The notes: generated by a model not told the origin, from the sequence alone. A DNA stretch of 64,000 nt from an uncultured Nitrospirales bacterium (GCA_964467615.1 CAYXRK010000001.1:14008-78007), one strand, 5' to 3'; shown: positions 1,630 through 13,138, numbered from the stretch's first letter. Numbers and translations are program-made.

Positions 1630-2079
1630 CTATTTTTTCGGCAACGTGAACCGCTGACCGTAGTAGTCATCGTTAAGCTTATGAATGAGATCCTTGCTCG
1701 CTTCAAGGTCCACCTCGAGAAGTTCGCGCATCGAAATGAATCCTCTCAGACGGCTATCCTCGTCCAGCACGACCAGATGTCGAAAGTTCTTGTTCAGCAT
1801 CAGTGCCGTGGCAACGCTATGCTTTTCGTCGATGGAGACATGGAACACGTCTGTCGTCATCACTCCGGTGATTTTCGTTTCACTCGGGTCGAGGCCCTTG
1901 TGCACAACCCGTCGAAGGAGGTCTCGCTCAGAGAAGACGCCGACAATCTCGTCTCCGTCGCAAACTGCCACCGCACCAACGCCCTTTTCATACAAGTAAT
2001 CAACCACTGCTTTGACCGTAAAGCTTGAATCGACCGAGAAGGCTTCGCGCTGGCCGATCAGATCGCGAATAGTTTTCAT
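1630..2079 (-). CDS. CBS domain pair-containing protein
   Basis: Tandem CBS-like motifs (GVGAVAVCDGDEIVGVFSERDLL ... NFRHLVVLDEDSRLRGFISMRELL). AGGGGAGA Shine-Dalgarno before the ATG at 2079. Confidence 0.65.
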   Translation of the reverse strand: MKTIRDLIGQREAFSVDSSFTVKAVVDYLYEKGVGAVAVCDGDEIVGVFSERDLLRRVVHKGLDPSETKITGVMTTDVFHVSIDEKHSVATALMLNKNFRHLVVLDEDSRLRGFISMRELLEVDLEASKDLIHKLNDDYYGQRFTLPKK

Positions 2080-2685
2080 AGGTCTCCCCTTTGGCCTGGT
2101 TGATCGAAGCACAAATCAGTGTAGCACGCGGGTCGTCATCCAGCGGTGAGCTGGAGCGGCTAATTCCGTAGCACAATCCGCAACGCCCTCAACACGCCCC
2201 GGACACTCGTCCAATCCCGGCCATGTCTAACCCTTACCGCGTTCGCGCTCGCGCCGTATAGGGCATCGTAGCGCGTACAGTTCCCCGCTACGCGCGAAAC
2301 GGCCCGATCCCGCCTAAAGTATGCGCAGCGAGGTAGATCGGGTACCTGGCGCGGCGAAGGGGTGGGGTCGCGGATTCGGTTTTTCAGGCGGGCGGAGAGG
2401 CCCCAAACTTTCGTGCCAATTCTTGCGCCACTTTCGCGCCACTCGCCGGGAAAAAGAGGGGATAAATGGTGTTGCGAGAGGATAGGCAAACCGGCGTAAG
2501 TGATTGACAGCAATAGGTGGAGATAAACTACAAAACTAATACAGTCGGATTTCAAGACCGGTGCGTTACCAATTACGCTAACCCTCCGCGAATAATTGTA
2601 CCCGTGTTTCGTCGATATTCCCAAGCGGGGGACGCGCCTCGGGCCGCGGCATAGTATGATTGTCCGTTGATACCGGGGGGATTCC

Positions 2686-5600
2686 ATGGCGGGTGCGTCG
2701 CGAAAACGTCGTCGGCTAATTGCTGCGCTAGCGGTGTTCGCGGCACTGGTGCCGCTCTGGCTAGTCGCCGAGCGGTATGTGCTTCGGGTAGATCGGTACC
2801 GGCCCGCGCTCGAAGACGCAATCGCCGGCGCAACCGGGCTGTCCGCCAGCATCGAGAGGATAGAGGCCCACCTCCTCCCCTGGCCGTACGTCGCGCTGGA
2901 AAACGTGACCGTCGGTTCGGGCGATTTTTGGGCGTTCGCGGAACGCATCGATGTTCGCGGAGAGTTGCGGGCCCTCGCGCGGGGGCGGCTCGAAATCGAT
3001 CTGGTGGAGGTGAAGCGGCTTTCGGTCGTGGTGCCGCCCGATCCGGACGACATTCGCGAGCGCGTAAACGTCCTCATCGACCACCTTACGGCCCCGTCAC
3101 AGGAGGAGCCGTGGTTTTCCGAGGTGTCGGTGATCAAGGTCGAGACCGAAGATGCGGGCGTTTATCTTAAGGGAGACGCCGAGCCCGCCGCAGTCATCAC
3201 GGTAACGGGCCGCGATGTTCTTTCGGACGCAGTGCAGACTCTGATCGAGGCGCGGCTGCCCGAATATGGCGCGGACGCACGAGCGTGGACGACGCTTAAC
3301 TTTACCCTCGCGGAGCAAAACGTTTTGGCGGTCTCGGGCGAGGGCTCATTCGAAGGATTGGAGCTCGCCTCGCTGCCGCTGGACGGTCTACCGCAAATTG
3401 TCATGCACGCAGGCTTCACGCTGTCGGGCGAAAACTTCGGGAGCATTGAAGCCGCGCTCACGGGGAACACTGCCTCCGTCGACACCGGACAGATGACCGG
3501 CGAATACGCCGGCGCGCTCTGGTGGAAGGACGAAGCGCTGACGTTGAACGATTTCACGTGGATCGGACCGGACGTCAATACCGCGCTCGACTTGACGCGC
3601 CATAAGGACGGACGCATTGTCGTTTCGGTGAAGCGATTCAGCGCGCGCGCCGGCGGACTAAGCGACATTCTCGCGGGCTTGAAGTTGAAGGACGCCGAAG
3701 TGACCGCGGGCCCGGACGCGTCGTTCGCCGCAACGGACCTGTTGTTCGCCCTGGAATCCGACGACACGATTCAATTCTCCCAGGGCAACGCCGAATTCTC
3801 GGGACTCGCCCTCGCACACGCCGACGAAGGCGAACTCGCGCACGGCGTGAAGGGCCACGTCACGATTACCGATGGGACGATAGCGGTCGAAGAACTCGTC
3901 GCCGAGGGCCTCGCGCTTCACGGCAACGTCACGCCGAACCCCGGCTGGACCACGTTCGCGCTCGATCTGTCCGGCAACGCCGATCTCGCCGCCGCACGCG
4001 TCGTCAGTCTCGTGTTTCCCGATTCGGTGCATGACGCCCAAGGCGTACTAGCGATAGACCGCATCGCGGGGACTTTTGATCGAAACGGCGCGCTTCCCGA
4101 CGATCTTGTCCTCACCGCGACGGTGAACGACGGTGCCTTTCGCGTCGAGTCCGAAGACTTCACTGCGGCTTTCGAAAGCGTGAACGTTCAAGTGCGGACG
4201 GACGGAAAGACCATCGCGACGGCGGCCTCCGCGGCTTCGCCCGAACTGGGCGCGATGCATCTCGACGGCCAGTATTCGGTCGCCGATCGCCTTTGGTCGG
4301 GCGCGACGACAATTGACGTACCGAAGGCCGCGACACACTTCATTGACGACGACGAGGTGTCCGCTCGGTTAGCGGGCCTGCTCGATCAGTATGGGACCGC
4401 CGAGTGGAAGACGGACGTCCAGTTTGCGGCCGAGGACGGGGACCCAATCGAGGTCCGCGTCTCTGGGGAAAATGCTCCTATGCTCAATGGCAAGGTACTC
4501 GTGGCAACCAACGAAGAACACACGCGGTTCGGCGATGTTCACGTCGAGACTGAACTCGCGTCGGACCGGTTGCCTCGCCTGCTTCCCGAGGGCATCCGCG
4601 CCGAGGGGCCCGTGACCGTCCGGTTCGACCGAGACGCCACCGCAGGCGAATTCACGGCGACCGCGAATCTTACCGGATGCACGCTAACGACCGAAGGCGA
4701 CGTTCAGAAGCGGTTCGGTGACGAACTTCTGATCGACCTGTCCGGCCAGGCCACGGAAGGAACGTGGCGCGCCGAGAAGGGCGCCCTGACGTGCCTCGGA
4801 CAACAGTTGGACTTTATTATCGAGGACAAACGGGTCGTCGCGCCGCATTTCGACATCGCCGCCGTGGCATGGGCACGGTTGCTGCCCGAGGGCGCGTCGG
4901 CGCATGGGAGGATTTTCGGGAAGGCGGCGTTCAATCCATTCGAGGCAGACCTGACGTTCCATGATCAGGGATTTCGACTCGATGACGAGATCGTGATCGA
5001 GCGCATCAACGGTAACGTCTCGATCTCCGGTCCGTATTTAACATGCCGCGATCTGAAAATCGAAGGCGCACGTTCGGATTGCACGGTCAATGCAGGCCGC
5101 TCGGACGGCGTCTGGCGTGGCGAAGTCCGCGGCCGGACATTGGATGTGAACGCATTCGCGCCGCTCGCGGGAGCGCTTATTGGACTCGCACAATCCGGCG
5201 GGAGTCCGAAGGACGCCACGGAAAAGAGTGAGGCCGATCCCTTCGTCGGCGACTTCAACATTGCCCTGGATCAAGTGTTCTTCCGTAAGGGACGGCTGGA
5301 CAAATTCACGGCGATGGTAAACGCGCGGGAGCAAGGCGTGTTCGTGAAGGACATCCGCTGCACGCCGTACAGCGGGTCGCTGACCGGCACAATAGATTGG
5401 GTGCCTTCGAACGCGGACGAACACGAAGTGCGCGTCAGTCTCGCCTTTGACGGGGCAGACTCGCGCATCGTCGACGAGATCCTTATGAACGACGAACGAG
5501 GGTTGGACGGAATTTTCTCGGGAACGCTCGACTTCAGTTCGCCCGCTATCGAGGGCAAGGAGTCCGTCAAACGCGCAAACGGCCGCGCAGAGATTCGGGC

Positions 5601-6006
5601 GGCAAACGGTAGTCTGGGAAAAATGGGCTGGGCCACGAAACTCATTTCGGTGTTGAAGACAACGGAAATCCTCGCGTTCCGGAGGCCGGAGTTCCGCGAT
5701 AAAGGGTTGACCTACGACGACTTATCCGGTAGGCTGGAGATGGTGAATGGCGTGCTGACGCTGCGGGACGTGAAGCTCGAAAGCCCCTCCTACTCGATGA
5801 CCGCCAGGGGAACGGTGGATTTCCCGCAAGACCGGTCGGACGTCGTGGTTCGGGTGCAGCCGCTCGAGAATATCAACCGGACCGTCGGTCGAATACCGAT
5901 TATCGGAGATGCGATTCGTCAAGTGACCAAAGTCGCCCGGGTGCGCGTGAATATCACAGGGTCGCCGTACGACACATCGCAGAGCGCGCAGGAAGACAAG
6001 GAATAG
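2686..6006 (+). CDS. AsmA-family / YhdP-like giant envelope protein (1105 aa) with N-terminal membrane anchor
   Basis: N-terminal TM helix followed by an AsmA-like N-domain. The C-terminus (PLENINRTVGRIPIIGDAIRQVTKVARVRVNITGSPYD) resembles the AsmA_2/YhdP C-terminal motif. The stop TAG is immediately followed by the ATG of the next gene. Confidence 0.55.
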   Translation: MAGASRKRRRLIAALAVFAALVPLWLVAERYVLRVDRYRPALEDAIAGATGLSASIERIEAHLLPWPYVALENVTVGSGDFWAFAERIDVRGELRALARGRLEIDLVEVKRLSVVVPPDPDDIRERVNVLIDHLTAPSQEEPWFSEVSVIKVETEDAGVYLKGDAEPAAVITVTGRDVLSDAVQTLIEARLPEYGADARAWTTLNFTLAEQNVLAVSGEGSFEGLELASLPLDGLPQIVMHAGFTLSGENFGSIEAALTGNTASVDTGQMTGEYAGALWWKDEALTLNDFTWIGPDVNTALDLTRHKDGRIVVSVKRFSARAGGLSDILAGLKLKDAEVTAGPDASFAATDLLFALESDDTIQFSQGNAEFSGLALAHADEGELAHGVKGHVTITDGTIAVEELVAEGLALHGNVTPNPGWTTFALDLSGNADLAAARVVSLVFPDSVHDAQGVLAIDRIAGTFDRNGALPDDLVLTATVNDGAFRVESEDFTAAFESVNVQVRTDGKTIATAASAASPELGAMHLDGQYSVADRLWSGATTIDVPKAATHFIDDDEVSARLAGLLDQYGTAEWKTDVQFAAEDGDPIEVRVSGENAPMLNGKVLVATNEEHTRFGDVHVETELASDRLPRLLPEGIRAEGPVTVRFDRDATAGEFTATANLTGCTLTTEGDVQKRFGDELLIDLSGQATEGTWRAEKGALTCLGQQLDFIIEDKRVVAPHFDIAAVAWARLLPEGASAHGRIFGKAAFNPFEADLTFHDQGFRLDDEIVIERINGNVSISGPYLTCRDLKIEGARSDCTVNAGRSDGVWRGEVRGRTLDVNAFAPLAGALIGLAQSGGSPKDATEKSEADPFVGDFNIALDQVFFRKGRLDKFTAMVNAREQGVFVKDIRCTPYSGSLTGTIDWVPSNADEHEVRVSLAFDGADSRIVDEILMNDERGLDGIFSGTLDFSSPAIEGKESVKRANGRAEIRAANGSLGKMGWATKLISVLKTTEILAFRRPEFRDKGLTYDDLSGRLEMVNGVLTLRDVKLESPSYSMTARGTVDFPQDRSDVVVRVQPLENINRTVGRIPIIGDAIRQVTKVARVRVNITGSPYDTSQSAQEDKE

Positions 6007-6945
6007 ATGAGCACAGCGACACTAACGGGCCCTCCCCGGATTCAAATCCAGACGCAGTCGGGCTGCAACGGTCGTTGCGTTTTTTGTCCGAACGAGGCCG
6101 TGCTCAACTCCGACCTGTCCCAGGGGCGCATGCCGCCGGCGCGGTTTCAGCAGATCATCGATGAACTGGCGAAGACGCCCCCTCGGCGCGTGAGTCTGTA
6201 TTTGCAAAACGAACCCATGCTGGACAAGCGGCTGCCAGACTTCTGCCGGTACGTCACCGAGCGCATTCCGTCGGCCTCCACCCTGGTGACGACCAACGGC
6301 ACCTATCTGAGCGAGGCCAGCGCCGCCGCGTTGATCGGCGGGGGGCTCAAACGCATCAAGGTCAGCATTCAATCCCTGGTTCCTGAACGCAACATGGACA
6401 TCATGGGGAAAGTCTGTGATTCGGACAAGGTCGTGAAGAACGTCTTGGGCGTGCGCAAGGTCATGAAGGAAATGCGGGCGAAGGCGTTTGATCTGCGCGT
6501 GTCAACCATCGTCACCGCCATGAACGAAGACGAAATCGGCGATATGCACAGGTTCTGGAAATCGCATGGCGTGAAGATGGTCACGTCCGCGCTCGAGAAC
6601 CGCGGCGGCAACATCGCCAACGCGCTCGAGATGAACGGCGCTGAGATGCGCACGCGAAGCGACTGCATCCGCCCGCACCGCGAGATGTGCGTGCTGTTCA
6701 ACGGCGACGCCGTACTTTGCTGCGTTGACTGGCACCGTGTCGAGGTCGTCGGCAACGTCTTCCAAGACGGCGTAGCGAACGTGTGGAACGGCGCGCGCCT
6801 TCAGCACATCCGCAAGGCGTTCAAAGAGGGCAATACTCAGGCGCTTCCGGAAATCTGCGTCAATTGCACCGAGAGCGCGTGTTCGGCGAAGCAGCGCAAG
6901 GGCTGGCCTTCATTCTTCAGGAACGTTTTCGCGCATGCGGGGTAA
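6007..6945 (+). CDS. radical SAM enzyme with C-terminal SPASM/twitch-like Cys cluster
   Basis: CNGRCVFC (CX3CX2C) at residues 20-27. C-terminal C..C..CC ... CVNCTESAC cysteine cluster. Start codon abuts the AsmA-like stop. Confidence 0.75.
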   Translation: MSTATLTGPPRIQIQTQSGCNGRCVFCPNEAVLNSDLSQGRMPPARFQQIIDELAKTPPRRVSLYLQNEPMLDKRLPDFCRYVTERIPSASTLVTTNGTYLSEASAAALIGGGLKRIKVSIQSLVPERNMDIMGKVCDSDKVVKNVLGVRKVMKEMRAKAFDLRVSTIVTAMNEDEIGDMHRFWKSHGVKMVTSALENRGGNIANALEMNGAEMRTRSDCIRPHREMCVLFNGDAVLCCVDWHRVEVVGNVFQDGVANVWNGARLQHIRKAFKEGNTQALPEICVNCTESACSAKQRKGWPSFFRNVFAHAG

Positions 6946-6999: not shown

Positions 7000-7164
7000 A
7001 TGATATCGATTAGTCAATTGCAACGCTTGGCCAACCTTTTCCTGCAACAGGTTGTTGGCCTCGGAGACGACCTCCTGGGCCTGCTCCAGTTTCGTTTCTA
7101 CGAGCTTCTCGGCGAACTGTTTGCCATCATCGCGCCACTCATTGGCTACACGCCCCCGCAATAG
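7000..7164 (+). CDS. small ORF A (54 aa) with AAGGAG Shine-Dalgarno: MISISQLQRLANLFLQQVVGLGDDLLGLLQFRFYELLGELFAIIAPLIGYTPPQ
   Basis: Not in the ORF track (<60 aa). AAGGAG sits 11 nt upstream of the ATG. High GC3. Lies directly downstream of the rSAM/SPASM gene. Paralogous in composition to ORF B. Confidence 0.4.
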   Translation: MISISQLQRLANLFLQQVVGLGDDLLGLLQFRFYELLGELFAIIAPLIGYTPPQ

Positions 7165-7191: not shown

Positions 7192-7317
7192 ATGGTTCGC
7201 GACCAAATTTTTGCCGCCATCCAAAGTTTCATCGACGACATTACCGTCTTCATCGCCGATTTTCTGGACACGGTGCTAAACGATCTCCTGCCCAATTTCC
7301 TGCCCTTCGACTTCTAG
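7192..7317 (+). CDS. small ORF B (41 aa) with AAAGGAG Shine-Dalgarno: MVRDQIFAAIQSFIDDITVFIADFLDTVLNDLLPNFLPFDF
   Basis: GGAG 8 nt upstream of the ATG. GC3 about 70%. Acidic/hydrophobic with no Cys. Tandem to ORF A. Confidence 0.4.
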   Translation: MVRDQIFAAIQSFIDDITVFIADFLDTVLNDLLPNFLPFDF

Positions 7318-7443: not shown

Positions 7444-8898
7444 ATGAATCGTCGCGCGTTTCTTCAATCCGCCGCCGCGAGCGCCTTCGCCGCCTCGGCC
7501 CTTGGCGCAAAAGGCGCCTGCCGCGCCCCAGCCGGATCGCCTGCGCCGAATTCGGGACCCACCCTTCCGATCATCGACGCGCACTGCCACATCTTCAACG
7601 CCTCCGACCTCGCCATCGAAGGCTTCATCAAACACGCCGTCCTGCATGCCTCGGGCGATCACCCCCTCGACGCCGCCATCGCCGCGCTCGACTTCCAACT
7701 CCAACGCGCGGCACCCTCCTTCGAGGAAGAGAATGCTTTGCTCGACGCGGTGCTTTGCGGAGATCCCATCCCCGAAGAATTTAATCGCACGGGACCATCA
7801 ATCGAAGATATCGACAACTTCCTCGAGCACCTCGCCAAGTCCCGCCCCGATCTGATTCGCGGCGTTGACAAACAGGACGTCCCGCACTTCGGCGAGGGCG
7901 TCCTGTTCAACGCCTTGCGCTGGGCCTGGATTCTCACGCGTCATCGTCTCCACATCATGCAACTCATGTTCAACACCTTCCCCGAAGTCGGGCTTTTCGT
8001 CCCTGCAATCGTCGATATGGACCTCTGGCTTTCGGATCACGCCGAGACATCAATTCCCAATCAAATTCGGCTATACGAAAAACTGATCCGGATTAGCCAA
8101 GGCCGCATCATGCCGCTCGCACCCTTCGATCCCTGGCGGCAAGTCAAAGCCGAACGCGCCGGTACCGATACGCCCCTCGAGTGGATCCAAGACGCCGTAC
8201 TCCACCGCGGTTTTGCCGGCGTAAAACTTTATCCGACGATGGGCTTTCGGGCGGAGGGCAACGCCGAATTGCGGCCCCGGTGGTTCTACCGCCCGCTCGA
8301 TTCCGCGCTCGAAGAACTCTACGAATGGTGCCAACAAGAACGCGTACCCATTTTGGCGCACGCAAACGCTTCGTGGGGATCCGAACGAGGGTTCGAGGAA
8401 CGCGCCGGCCCGGAATACTGGCGGCGCGCACTCGAACGGTTTCCGGAACTCCGAATCAGTTTTGGGCACTTCGGCGGCGACAATGACCTACTGTCACGCG
8501 GGATGGACAGCCGATGTTGGGACTTCGCGAATCTCATGCAAGAGTATCCAAACGCGTTCGCGGACATAGGTTTCCACGACATCGGGTTTCCCTCGACGCG
8601 CGAGTGCGACGTCGAGAAGTACTTCGCCTTGATGCGTGAACTCGCGGCACAATTTCCGGCTGCGATTGACCGCATCATGTACGGCAGCGATTGGCACATG
8701 ATCGTGCAAACATCAGGAAACGACCAATACTTCACGACCACCTTCGAGCGCTTCGCCTCCCACTGGCCCGAAGCCCAGTCCGGCGTCTTTAACGCGAACG
8801 CGCGCCGATGGCTCGATCTCGACGACACGCAATCCACAGCCCGTCAACGACTCGACGCCTTCTACTCCACGCGAGGAATCACACCAAGCTGTACGTAA
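7444..8898 (+). CDS. amidohydrolase-2 (TIM-barrel metal-dependent hydrolase) family protein with Tat signal peptide
   Basis: N-terminal MNRRAFLQSAAASAFAASA (twin-arginine motif). IIDAHCHIF metal-binding motif typical of the amidohydrolase_2 family. Confidence 0.55.
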   Translation: MNRRAFLQSAAASAFAASALGAKGACRAPAGSPAPNSGPTLPIIDAHCHIFNASDLAIEGFIKHAVLHASGDHPLDAAIAALDFQLQRAAPSFEEENALLDAVLCGDPIPEEFNRTGPSIEDIDNFLEHLAKSRPDLIRGVDKQDVPHFGEGVLFNALRWAWILTRHRLHIMQLMFNTFPEVGLFVPAIVDMDLWLSDHAETSIPNQIRLYEKLIRISQGRIMPLAPFDPWRQVKAERAGTDTPLEWIQDAVLHRGFAGVKLYPTMGFRAEGNAELRPRWFYRPLDSALEELYEWCQQERVPILAHANASWGSERGFEERAGPEYWRRALERFPELRISFGHFGGDNDLLSRGMDSRCWDFANLMQEYPNAFADIGFHDIGFPSTRECDVEKYFALMRELAAQFPAAIDRIMYGSDWHMIVQTSGNDQYFTTTFERFASHWPEAQSGVFNANARRWLDLDDTQSTARQRLDAFYSTRGITPSCT

Positions 8899-10307: not shown

Positions 10308-11687
10308 ATGACACAGATTCTCCCCGATCCCACCAAGCGCGCTCTCCTATTCGCAGGCGGCGAATGGTCATACGCAGACCTCCATGCCCGCGTCGCCTGG
10401 GCGTCCGAACGCCTCCGCGATCGCGGCCTGCGGCCCGGTGACCGCCTCGTCATCAGTCTGCCTGCGGGAGTCGAAGCCGTCGTCTGGCTCTTGGCCGCGC
10501 TCGAGGCCCGCGCCGTGGTTTGCCCCGTCAATCCCAAACTCCCTCACCACGCCCTCGGCGATATCCTCAAGCGCCTCCGCGCGAAACATATCGTCCAGCA
10601 GGCTGACTCCGCCATCGAGGGCGAAATATCTGGCGTCGGCGTTCTCGAGTTCAGCGATGAAGAACTCGCCCGGCCAACCATCGTCGTCGCGACCTCCGGC
10701 AGCACAGCCGAACCGAAGCTCGCCGTGCTGTCGCTCCGAAATTTCCTCGCGAACGCCGACGCCTCGAACCGGAACATCCCCATCGCACCCGGCGACGCGT
10801 GGCTCCTCTCGCTGCCCCTGTTCCACATCTCCGGTCTCGGCATCGCCTTTCGGTGCACGCAGGCCCGCGCGACGATTACCGTGCCGCATCCCGATCAATC
10901 GTTGGCAAGCGCGATCACCGAATTCGGCGTAACGCATGCGTCGCTGGTTTCAACGCAACTGTACCGCCTGCTCGAATCCGAGGAGGGCCGCGCCGCCCTA
11001 TCCGGCCTCAATGCCGTGCTGCTCGGCGGCAGCGCCATCCCGGAATCGCTGATTCGGCGTGCGGTCGAGCGCGGCGTCCCAATCCACACCACCTACGGCC
11101 TCACCGAAAGCGCCGGTCAAGTCACCACCACGCCTCCGGTCTCTGACCTCGAAACGCTGCTGAGCTCGGGGCGCCCCCTCGCCGAGAGCACCATCCGCAT
11201 CGCCGCATCCGGCGAGATCGAAATCGCTGGCCCCACCCTATTCCTCGGCTACCTACAACCCAACGGCAGCATCACCCGGCCCGCCACGCCGGACGGTTGG
11301 TTTCCGACGGGCGACCTCGGCCGCTTCGACGACCACGGCCTACTCCACGTCACCGGCCGCCGCGACAATATGTTCATCAGCGGCGGCGAAAACATCCAGC
11401 CCGAAGAAATCGAACGTGCCCTCGCACAGATCGACGGCGTCGCGCAAGCGATCATCGTCCCCGTCCCAAGCGCCGAATATGGCCACCGCCCCGCCGCGTT
11501 CGTCCAATTGAGGGACCAAACCGCCCTCGAACCCGAAAGACTACGCGCGGCCTTGCGCGAATTGTTGCCAAGCTACAAACTACCCGACGCGTTTTTCGAC
11601 TGGCCGGAAGATCTCACCCGCGACGGCCTCAAACCCAGCCGTGCGGACTTCGCGAAACGGGCGCAGATGCTCGGCGGCAATCACTGA
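10308..11687 (+). CDS. AMP-dependent synthetase/ligase (MenE-like o-succinylbenzoate-CoA ligase family)
   Basis: [12 protein letters not shown]-binding motif, YGLTE and [17 protein letters not shown] motifs. About 459 aa, the size of MenE. menB is present elsewhere in the window. Confidence 0.7.
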
Positions 11688-11758
11688 AATGTAGCAACGC
11701 GCACGTTGCTCCGGGGCCCCTCTTGCGCGTATCGTCTCGCTTTTCGTCAGGACGGGTA

Positions 11759-13138
11759 ATGGCAGTTCATAGGATTAAAAAGGGCCTCGATCTGCCCATC
11801 TCGGGCGAGCCCGAGCAGGCCGTTCGACCAGGCGCGGCCGTGACGCGGGTCGCGCTTTTGGCGGACGACTACCCCGGCATGAAGCCGACGATGCTCGTCG
11901 AGCCGGGCGACGCGGTCAAGCGCGGCCAGGAGATTTTTGAAGACAAGAAGAACCCCGGCGTCGTGTACACGTCCCCGGGAGCGGGCGCCGTTCTCGCGGT
12001 GAATCGTGGTGAGAAGCGTGCGTTCCAATCCGTCGTAATCGAGCTAAGCGCCGCCGAACGCAAAGGCGCGCCCGCGGCGGACGAGTTCCAAGAATTCGAA
12101 CACTATACCGGCGGCGGCCCCAACGCGCTCGACGCCGCGCAAATCCGGGCGCTGCTGATCGAGTCGGGCCAATGGACGGCTTTCCGCACACGCCCGATGA
12201 GCAAAGTCCCCGCCGTCGATTCGACACCTGCCGCGATCTTCGTTACGGCGATGGACACCAATCCGCTCGCGCCGTCGGTCGACGTCGTGTTCAACGAAAA
12301 CAAGGACGCATTCAGCGCGGGTCTCGGGGTCGTGTCGAAGCTCACGACCGGGCCGACGTATTTGTGCCGCGCGCCCGCCGGCGCCGTCTCTTCAAATGGA
12401 CACCAGAACATCCGCGTCGAAGAGTTCAAAGGCGTGCATCCCGCAGGCAACGCTGGGACGCACATTCACATCCTCGAAGGCGCGGGCCGCTCCCACGTGG
12501 TCTGGCATATCGGCCTTCAAGACGTGATCGCCATCGGCCATTTGTTCAAGACAGGTCGCCTCTACGTGGACCGCATCATCGCGCTGGGCGGTCCGCAAGT
12601 CTCAAAGCCGCGCCTCCTGCGAACTCGCACAGGCGCATCCACTGATCAATTGGCCACCGGGGAACTGAAGGAAGGCGAGAACCGCGTCATTTCCGGCTCG
12701 GTGCTGTCCGGTCGATCCGCGCACGGCGACGTCTTCGGATACTTGGGCCGTTTTCACCAGCAAATCTCCGTCCTGCGCGAAGGCCGCGAGCGCGAGTTCC
12801 TCGGTTGGCTCACGCCGGGCGGCGATAGGTTCTCCGTCACCCGCTCGTTTCTATCGAGTCTCTTCCGCGGCCGCCGCTTCGATTTCACGACGAGCACAAT
12901 GGGCAGTCCGCGCGCGATGGTGCCGATTGGCCTCTACGAAAAAGTCATGCCGCTCGACATCTTGGCGACCTATCTCTTGCGGGCGCTCATCATGGGCGAC
13001 GTCGAGCGCGCCGAACAGTTGGGCTGCCTCGAACTCGACGAAGAAGACCTCGCGTTGTGCTCGTTCGTGTGTCCGGGCAAGACCGAGTACGGCCCCTTGT
13101 TGCGCGCCGTGCTCATGCAGATCGAGAAGGAAGGCTGA
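11759..13138 (+). CDS. nqrA: Na+-translocating NADH:quinone oxidoreductase subunit A
   Basis: [18 protein letters not shown]... N-terminus typical of NqrA. The ORF-track upstream extension is Arg-rich and spurious. First gene of the nqrABCDEF series. Confidence 0.85.

Follow-up and report, generated by a model that had tools for sequence, protein, structure and literature searches.

The DNA analysed here, called the window, is a 64,000-nucleotide (nt) stretch of one strand (GCA_964467615.1, CAYXRK010000001.1:14008-78007) labelled as coming from an uncultured Nitrospirales bacterium. It carries two adjoining genes that are best read as a two-gene operon of the phylum Hydrogenedentota. The first gene (2686..6006, + strand) encodes a YhdP/AsmA-like giant envelope protein and ends in TAG; the second (6007..6945, + strand) encodes a BtrN-like radical SAM enzyme of 312 amino acids (aa). 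A preliminary description of the window had reported both open reading frames (ORFs) and the juxtaposition of stop and start codons. ORF listing and translation confirmed them, and gave 1106 aa for the large protein, previously said to have 1105. Direct reading of the junction (5998..6009, + strand) gives AAGGAATAG followed immediately by ATG, with TAG at 6004-6006, ATG at 6007-6009 and a Shine-Dalgarno-like AAGGA run 4 nt 5' of the start codon of the enzyme gene. Both ORFs are considered real genes because each has many full-length homologues.

The AsmA-family label given earlier to the large protein held. The protein scored 81.7 bits with the Pfam YhdP model PF13116 (cut-off 46) over residues 796-1093, and 27.8 bits, just under the cut-off of 29.8, with the AsmA model PF05170 over residues 14-113. 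A homologue (P0122) has a precomputed PF05170 match, and an identical protein from a metagenome-assembled genome (MAG) is named at NCBI 'AsmA-like C-terminal domain-containing protein [Candidatus Hydrogenedentota bacterium]'. An N-terminal RKRRR stretch and a hydrophobic segment are followed by a long beta-rich body and a YhdP-type C-terminal domain. Searches of protein databases, limited by their word prefilter, returned only three family members, which left a shallow alignment for structure prediction; the resulting AlphaFold2 model, of moderate confidence (pLDDT, the predicted local distance difference test, 64), has a helix at residues 6-32 and then about 70 beta strands, in line with an N-terminal membrane helix and an almost all-beta body. 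The model lends some support to a continuous beta-sheet groove along the protein, though not decisively. A sequence search of the PDB with the YhdP-like profile gave no match. The protein is accepted here, from its sequence matches, as YhdP/AsmA-like. [quoted passage not shown]

The small enzyme matched the Pfam models Radical_SAM (55.5 bits) and SPASM (44.4 bits), and no NCBIfam model reached its cut-off in a scan of the 312 aa. Its best PDB sequence match was BtrN (profile E 1e-27); in a pairwise comparison both halves of the two proteins align, with about 22% identity. An AlphaFold2 model of the enzyme (pLDDT 85.7) also had BtrN as its best Foldseek match in the PDB (4m7t, E 2e-15, template-modelling score 0.75), followed by MoaA, DesII and viperin. 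BlsE was likewise among the top structural matches, all of which are small-molecule enzymes, and the proteins SuiB, anSME (anaerobic sulfatase-maturating enzyme), EpeE and SkfB came further down. The CxxxCxxC motif (C20-x3-C24-x2-C27) is invariant in 79 sequences. An E-N-R-G-G motif at residues 197-201 is also invariant, and its N-R-G-G part aligns with the NRGG of BtrN, the motif with Arg152, which contacts the substrate hydroxyl in BtrN.

The same description had called this protein a radical SAM/SPASM enzyme. A full SPASM domain holds two auxiliary clusters and has the seven-Cys motif CX9-15GX4C ... CX2CX5CX3C ... C, which the enzyme lacks. Only five C-terminal Cys residues are invariant in the family (C220, C238, C239, C284 and C287; C228 and C292 are variable), and C220, C238/C239, C284 and C287 align with Cys residues in the Twitch-domain region of BtrN. 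The auxiliary site is therefore assigned as a one-cluster Twitch-type Cys set and not as a full SPASM domain; the Pfam SPASM model also covers Twitch-type domains. The radical SAM part of the label thus stands, and its SPASM part gives way to a single, BtrN-like Twitch set. In a distant clade of the family the protein ends right after the CxxC. The C-terminal tail of the enzyme from the window is cationic and moderately amphipathic, a weak hint that it may act at the membrane surface. Genes for 2-deoxystreptamine or aminoglycoside synthesis were absent from the window and from related loci; the enzyme is therefore regarded not as a BtrN orthologue, but as a relative that may work like BtrN. 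Its family is uncharacterised.

Two other assignments of the enzyme were considered. Sulfatase genes lie near some of the loci, and an anaerobic sulfatase maturase was rejected: no anSME model was present among the best 25 of 27 NCBIfam matches, and anSME ranked about 29th in the fold search. An anti-phage, viperin-like enzyme with a membrane partner would account for weak matches to the PADLOC pVip model (46.8 bits) and to the NCBIfam viperin model (36.4 bits, cut-off 180), but these matches cover only the generic radical SAM core, with scores far short of the cut-offs. The enzyme is clearly closer to BtrN, and its gene sits in ordinary chromosomal contexts as a single-copy-like orthologue conserved across the phylum. 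A viperin-like role is extremely improbable, and the family cut-offs effectively refute it.

Homologues of the enzyme with at least 45% identity come nearly all from Hydrogenedentota MAGs, and some homologues from MAGs labelled Nitrospirales fall inside the same clade. The pair had been framed earlier as belonging to Planctomycetes or the PVC group. This affiliation was rejected, since the close homologues, including a 100%-identical NCBI protein, are all from Hydrogenedentota. It was also observed that several MAGs labelled Nitrospiraceae or Nitrospirales (L009, L014, L016, L021, L033, L040, L041, L046 and others) have enzyme genes, several of them with YhdP-like genes, that nest in Hydrogenedentota, which suggests that these labels are wrong.

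Conservation of the pair was counted in one scan of GTDB species-representative genomes, which gave 43 loci (L006-L048). Six of these were too short for the upstream gene to be judged, leaving 37 informative loci; absence of the YhdP-like gene was scored only where at least 3.3 kb of upstream sequence was visible. In 20 of the 37 the enzyme gene is immediately preceded, on its own strand, by the YhdP-like gene; in one further locus (L022) the two are 3 kb apart after an inversion, and the other 16 lack the YhdP-like gene. Further metagenome contigs have the same gene order (L001, L085, L086, L089 and L090). The pair is kept while the enzyme diverges to about 50% identity (range 50-72%) and the YhdP-like protein to about 24-33%. 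No other flanking gene family is common to more than about three paired loci, and none of the window's other neighbours was found in the first 84 loci. The pair is thus conserved in related genomes and its surroundings are not, as the preliminary description had proposed to check by comparison of gene neighbourhoods. The conserved pairing itself is solid.

The abutting codons, on the other hand, are a lineage-specific trait. They are present in the window, as described, but a gap of zero was found only there and in the nearest relative (L085), the gap being 24-616 nt in 26 other loci. The median gap is about 76 nt, and 25 of 28 gaps do not exceed 154 nt, a spacing like that within operons. In a neighbour-joining tree of the enzyme the pairing fills a crown clade (21 of 28 loci); the basal Hydrogenedens-type clade and one further clade do without it, a distribution that fits one origin of the pairing followed by five or six separations. 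A hidden Markov model (HMM) built from 22 YhdP-like sequences detected no second AsmA-like partner in the loci devoid of the YhdP-like gene. Two sets of neighbours were rejected as substitute partners: the large neighbour in L010 clusters with a gene annotated as a GH38 glycosidase in L004, and the neighbours in the other loci of this kind are unrelated (a histidine kinase, a carbamoyltransferase and a sialidase-like protein). A scan of metagenomes starting from the YhdP-like gene yielded four loci, one of which (L088) is the same contig as L025.

Relatives of the enzyme with 30-35% identity occur in other phyla and keep the same set of motifs; an exhaustive HMMER search gave 68 representative clusters (50% identity) at E<=1e-30. 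A fused NTP-transferase/CDP-alcohol-phosphatidyltransferase gene adjoins the enzyme gene or overlaps with it in KSB1, Gemmatimonadota, Bacteroidota and unclassified bacteria; about 20 of 36 distant loci have this partner. The best NCBIfam match of this fused partner is inositol-1-phosphate cytidylyltransferase/CDP-inositol transferase (IPCT/DIPPS), with 239 bits, below the cut-off of 580. Further along the same strand, several of these loci have genes for MlaC-DUF3047, a TolC-like OEP, MlaC and an MMPL transporter. An ABC exporter follows the enzyme gene in Desulfobacterota, and in Aquificota and Deferribacterota the gene lies among those for GT4 glycosyltransferases and a CDP-glycerol glycerophosphotransferase. 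Relatives with 32-35% identity are fused to GT4 glycosyltransferases (P0146, P0153 and P0155) and to a GH4 glycosidase (P0198). These contexts and the kinship with BtrN suggest that the substrate is a sugar or cyclitol tied to the synthesis and export of an envelope lipid or glycoconjugate.

Two further arrangements were observed among these relatives. In L063 (6377-14325), one strand carries in succession an aldehyde dehydrogenase gene, the IPCT/DIPPS-like fusion, the BtrN-like gene, and genes for MlaC-DUF3047, a TolC-like OEP and MlaC. This cluster, of KSB1-type and unclassified bacteria, is also present in L078 and L082, with related arrangements in L061, L062 and L072 and an MMPL gene in L072 and L076; it looks like an undescribed operon for head-group synthesis and lipid export. 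In four proteins (P0174, P0179, P0191 and P0205) the relative forms the first module of a giant protein of 1167-2036 aa with several radical SAM and B12-binding domains.

In the reading that we propose, an envelope lipid has its sugar or cyclitol head group tailored by the BtrN-like enzyme and reaches the outer membrane with the YhdP-like protein as its conduit; we give this reading a probability of roughly 40%. The enzyme would be cytoplasmic. With a 5'-deoxyadenosyl radical and one auxiliary [4Fe-4S] cluster it would take a hydrogen from a hydroxyl-bearing carbon of a sugar or cyclitol (inositol-like) group and most likely oxidise that carbon. An envelope lipid or glycolipid synthesised at the inner membrane would have, or later acquire, the tailored group as its polar head. 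The YhdP-like protein, predicted to be anchored in the inner membrane and to span the periplasm, would then carry the tailored lipid to the outer membrane. What was observed is the gene order, the families of the two proteins, a pair kept amid scrambled flanks, and relatives of the enzyme in lipid, inositol and sugar contexts. We infer the substrate, the chemistry, the cargo and the action of both proteins on the same molecule from comparative genomics in an uncultivated phylum. The earlier suggestion of an 'envelope-modification system' is an inference of the same kind.

Several observations weigh against this proposal. About 16 Hydrogenedentota loci, among them all those of the basal Hydrogenedens clade, have the enzyme gene and no YhdP-like gene. 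Two loci, L019 and L020, are about 90% identical at the DNA level from 86 nt upstream of the enzyme gene onward (L020 7734-9996 aligns with L019 3286-5547), and the YhdP-like gene is present only in L020. This difference could reflect either a recent rearrangement or a chimeric MAG assembly; the breakpoint lies exactly between the two genes, so that their linkage in cis appears dispensable. In L091 a YhdP-like orthologue has no enzyme gene within 1.3 kb downstream, and no radical SAM gene adjoins the nearest YhdP-like genes outside Hydrogenedentota. With an identity of only about 22%, the enzyme could differ from BtrN in its chemistry. Lastly, no inositol or CDP-alcohol gene is consistently found near the Hydrogenedentota pair, and none is present in the window. 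Candidates for such a gene were rejected: the one strong HMM match (L048) is GlmU-like, and those in L028 and L031 are PgsA.

Some of these observations would be expected if the two genes were inherited neighbours with no shared task, the enzyme acting on a soluble sugar, cyclitol or cofactor precursor and riding on the transcript of the upstream gene. The tree implies at least five or six separations of the pair, and no replacement partner took over; basal clades lack the pairing; and where L019 and L020 diverge between the genes, the enzyme gene keeps its own leader of 70-86 nt. The typical gaps of 24-154 nt also leave room for an internal promoter, and the two proteins evolve at very different rates, as the identity ranges given above indicate. 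The separation of the pair in several lineages means that linkage in cis is not obligatory. The crown clade nevertheless keeps the pair in 21 of its 28 loci while all other neighbours are scrambled, and relatives in three other lineages adjoin envelope export or lipid-transport genes, which is hard to explain if the enzyme family has no role in the envelope. We consider mere neighbourhood somewhat unlikely.

The genes that follow the pair bear on another explanation. Two small ORFs lie downstream on the + strand, each preceded by a GGAG ribosome-binding site: one of 54 aa (7000..7164), whose site is conserved, begins 55 nt after the enzyme gene, and one of 41 aa occupies 7192..7317. Compared with L085, the first shows four conservative amino acid changes among about 19 nucleotide changes and the second one amino acid change among about 10, while the surrounding non-coding DNA has diverged and contains indels. 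This predominance of synonymous change between diverged flanks has the pattern of purifying selection, and both ORFs therefore look like real genes. Their products are acidic, hydrophobic and free of Cys. With tblastn and phmmer, L085 was the only fetched locus to give a homologue of either, and the rest of the window gave none. The next gene (7444..8898, + strand) encodes a 484-aa Amidohydro_2-family protein (Pfam, 58.6 bits) with an N-terminal twin-arginine motif, MNRRAFLQS; by the same two methods it was found only in L085, with 83% identity. The small ORFs and this Tat-exported amidohydrolase had been counted earlier as parts of the system. Since they recur only in L085, they are lineage-specific neighbours that lie outside the conserved unit.

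SPASM and Twitch radical SAM enzymes often act on peptides. The enzyme could accordingly be a maturase that modifies the YhdP-like protein before its export, as anaerobic sulfatase-maturating enzymes do for their targets, or that modifies the two small downstream peptides in the manner of ribosomally synthesised and post-translationally modified peptides (RiPPs). The peptide-modifying enzymes SuiB, anSME, EpeE and SkfB do appear in the lower part of the fold list, and two apparently real small ORFs do follow the enzyme gene closely in the window and in L085. Against this, the closest relatives by both sequence and fold are small-molecule enzymes, Pfam detected no peptide-binding domain of the RiPP recognition element (RRE) or PqqD type, and the fusion partners seen in the family are glycosyltransferases and a glycosidase, none of them a peptide-handling domain. 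Cys is absent from the small ORFs, which are restricted to the two closest loci. The alignment of YhdP-like proteins, in which the invariant residues are mostly Gly and Pro, contains no invariant Cys or Ser motif. A maturase is quite improbable on these grounds.

A different small-ORF cluster was observed in L002 and L003 (12688-16942), where the YhdP pairing is absent and the enzyme gene is a few kb away. Five small ORFs in tandem (39-60 aa) come first, and genes for two GNAT acetyltransferases, an Rce1-like (CPBP) protease and an ABC ATPase follow; the whole looks like a bacteriocin- or RiPP-type cluster.

On its 5' side the pair is preceded by an intergenic region (2113..2685), beyond which a CBS-domain gene (1630..2112) lies on the minus strand. 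The YhdP-like gene is therefore the first of its unit, and transcription most likely starts within 2113..2685, a region in which no convincing sigma-70 site was seen on the + strand. This region of about 570 nt upstream of the YhdP-like gene also contains a weak tRNA-like Rfam match on the minus strand (2518..2587; 25.5 bits, gathering score 29). ARAGORN found no tRNA there, and the match may represent a degraded tRNA. On the 3' side, hemB follows the amidohydrolase gene on the minus strand. Further on, nqrA was called as the longest ORF (11297..13138, TTG start), which shares about 390 nt with the preceding gene, that of an AMP-binding enzyme (10308..11687); the NqrA domains start only at residue 159 of this call, and the true start of nqrA is therefore probably much later.

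Full-text literature searches listed no paper linking a radical SAM enzyme to AsmA-like proteins, in agreement with the preliminary description, which knew of no operonic coupling of this kind. Both parts are of known kinds; it is their conserved pairing that is undescribed in the literature searched, and it hints at an undescribed way of tailoring and exporting an outer-membrane lipid. An operon that ties an AsmA-like protein to a radical SAM enzyme of the sugar or cyclitol type offers a concrete and testable hypothesis of cargo specificity, and it also draws attention to an uncharacterised enzyme family that lies, in several phyla, next to genes for lipid head-group synthesis and lipid export. 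If the pairing is incidental, it is an ordinary conserved gene neighbourhood in an uncultivated phylum.

In its widest form the proposal would make the pair the first case of an AsmA-like bridge between membranes that serves one specialised cargo and is encoded side by side with the cargo-tailoring enzyme. The BtrN-like enzyme would oxidise or remodel a cyclitol or sugar lipid head group anaerobically, and its product would reach the outer membrane by way of the YhdP-like conduit. Elsewhere, this enzyme family would have been recruited to head-group synthases of the CDP-inositol type and to Mla, MMPL and TolC-like exporters, the whole amounting to an undescribed and phylogenetically wide pathway of head-group modification. 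We regard this extended scheme as rather unlikely.

AsmA-like proteins are debated as the long-sought phospholipid route to the Gram-negative outer membrane, and the cargo of each paralogue is an open question. Their known operon partners (TamA; YnbE/YdbL) belong to the envelope, and none is known to be a cytoplasmic radical SAM enzyme. The large protein is similar in size to YhdP, TamB and YdbH of Escherichia coli (about 1100-1260 aa), and resembles the YhdP/AsmA-like proteins of that species in its predicted inner-membrane anchor at the N-terminus, its long, beta-rich body in the periplasm and its YhdP-type C-terminal domain; its sequence similarity to them is limited to the ends, and its NCBIfam equivalog scores are far below the cut-offs. 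The literature on AsmA-like proteins and YhdP gives the context for this comparison (PMC8593681, PMC8912898, PMC11126948); a radical SAM enzyme is mentioned in none of the papers listed by the search on this subject.

For the enzyme, the closest solved relative by sequence and fold is BtrN (PDB 4M7S/4M7T), which serves butirosin biosynthesis as a 2-deoxy-scyllo-inosamine dehydrogenase. It is described as a Twitch radical SAM dehydrogenase (PMC10337720). The enzyme of the window is about 60 residues longer than BtrN and carries its cationic tail at the C-terminus; BtrN belongs to a context of antibiotic biosynthesis, whereas the enzyme is found among envelope genes. A route to inositol lipids through an NTP-transferase and a CDP-alcohol transferase has been proposed in Bacteroidetes (PMC9246714). 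The likeness to this route lies in the relatives from KSB1, Gemmatimonadota and Bacteroidota, whose genes are coupled to an IPCT/DIPPS-like fusion. That fusion partner is present neither in the window nor in the Hydrogenedentota loci, and the term 'radical SAM' is not mentioned in the paper. Calditol synthase (Cds) remodels the sugar head group of archaeal membrane lipids (PMC13459092). It differs from the enzyme described here in being archaeal, in catalysing a ring contraction and in having no known AsmA-like partner; the resemblance is a functional analogy only, in that radical SAM chemistry is applied to a lipid head group derived from a carbohydrate.

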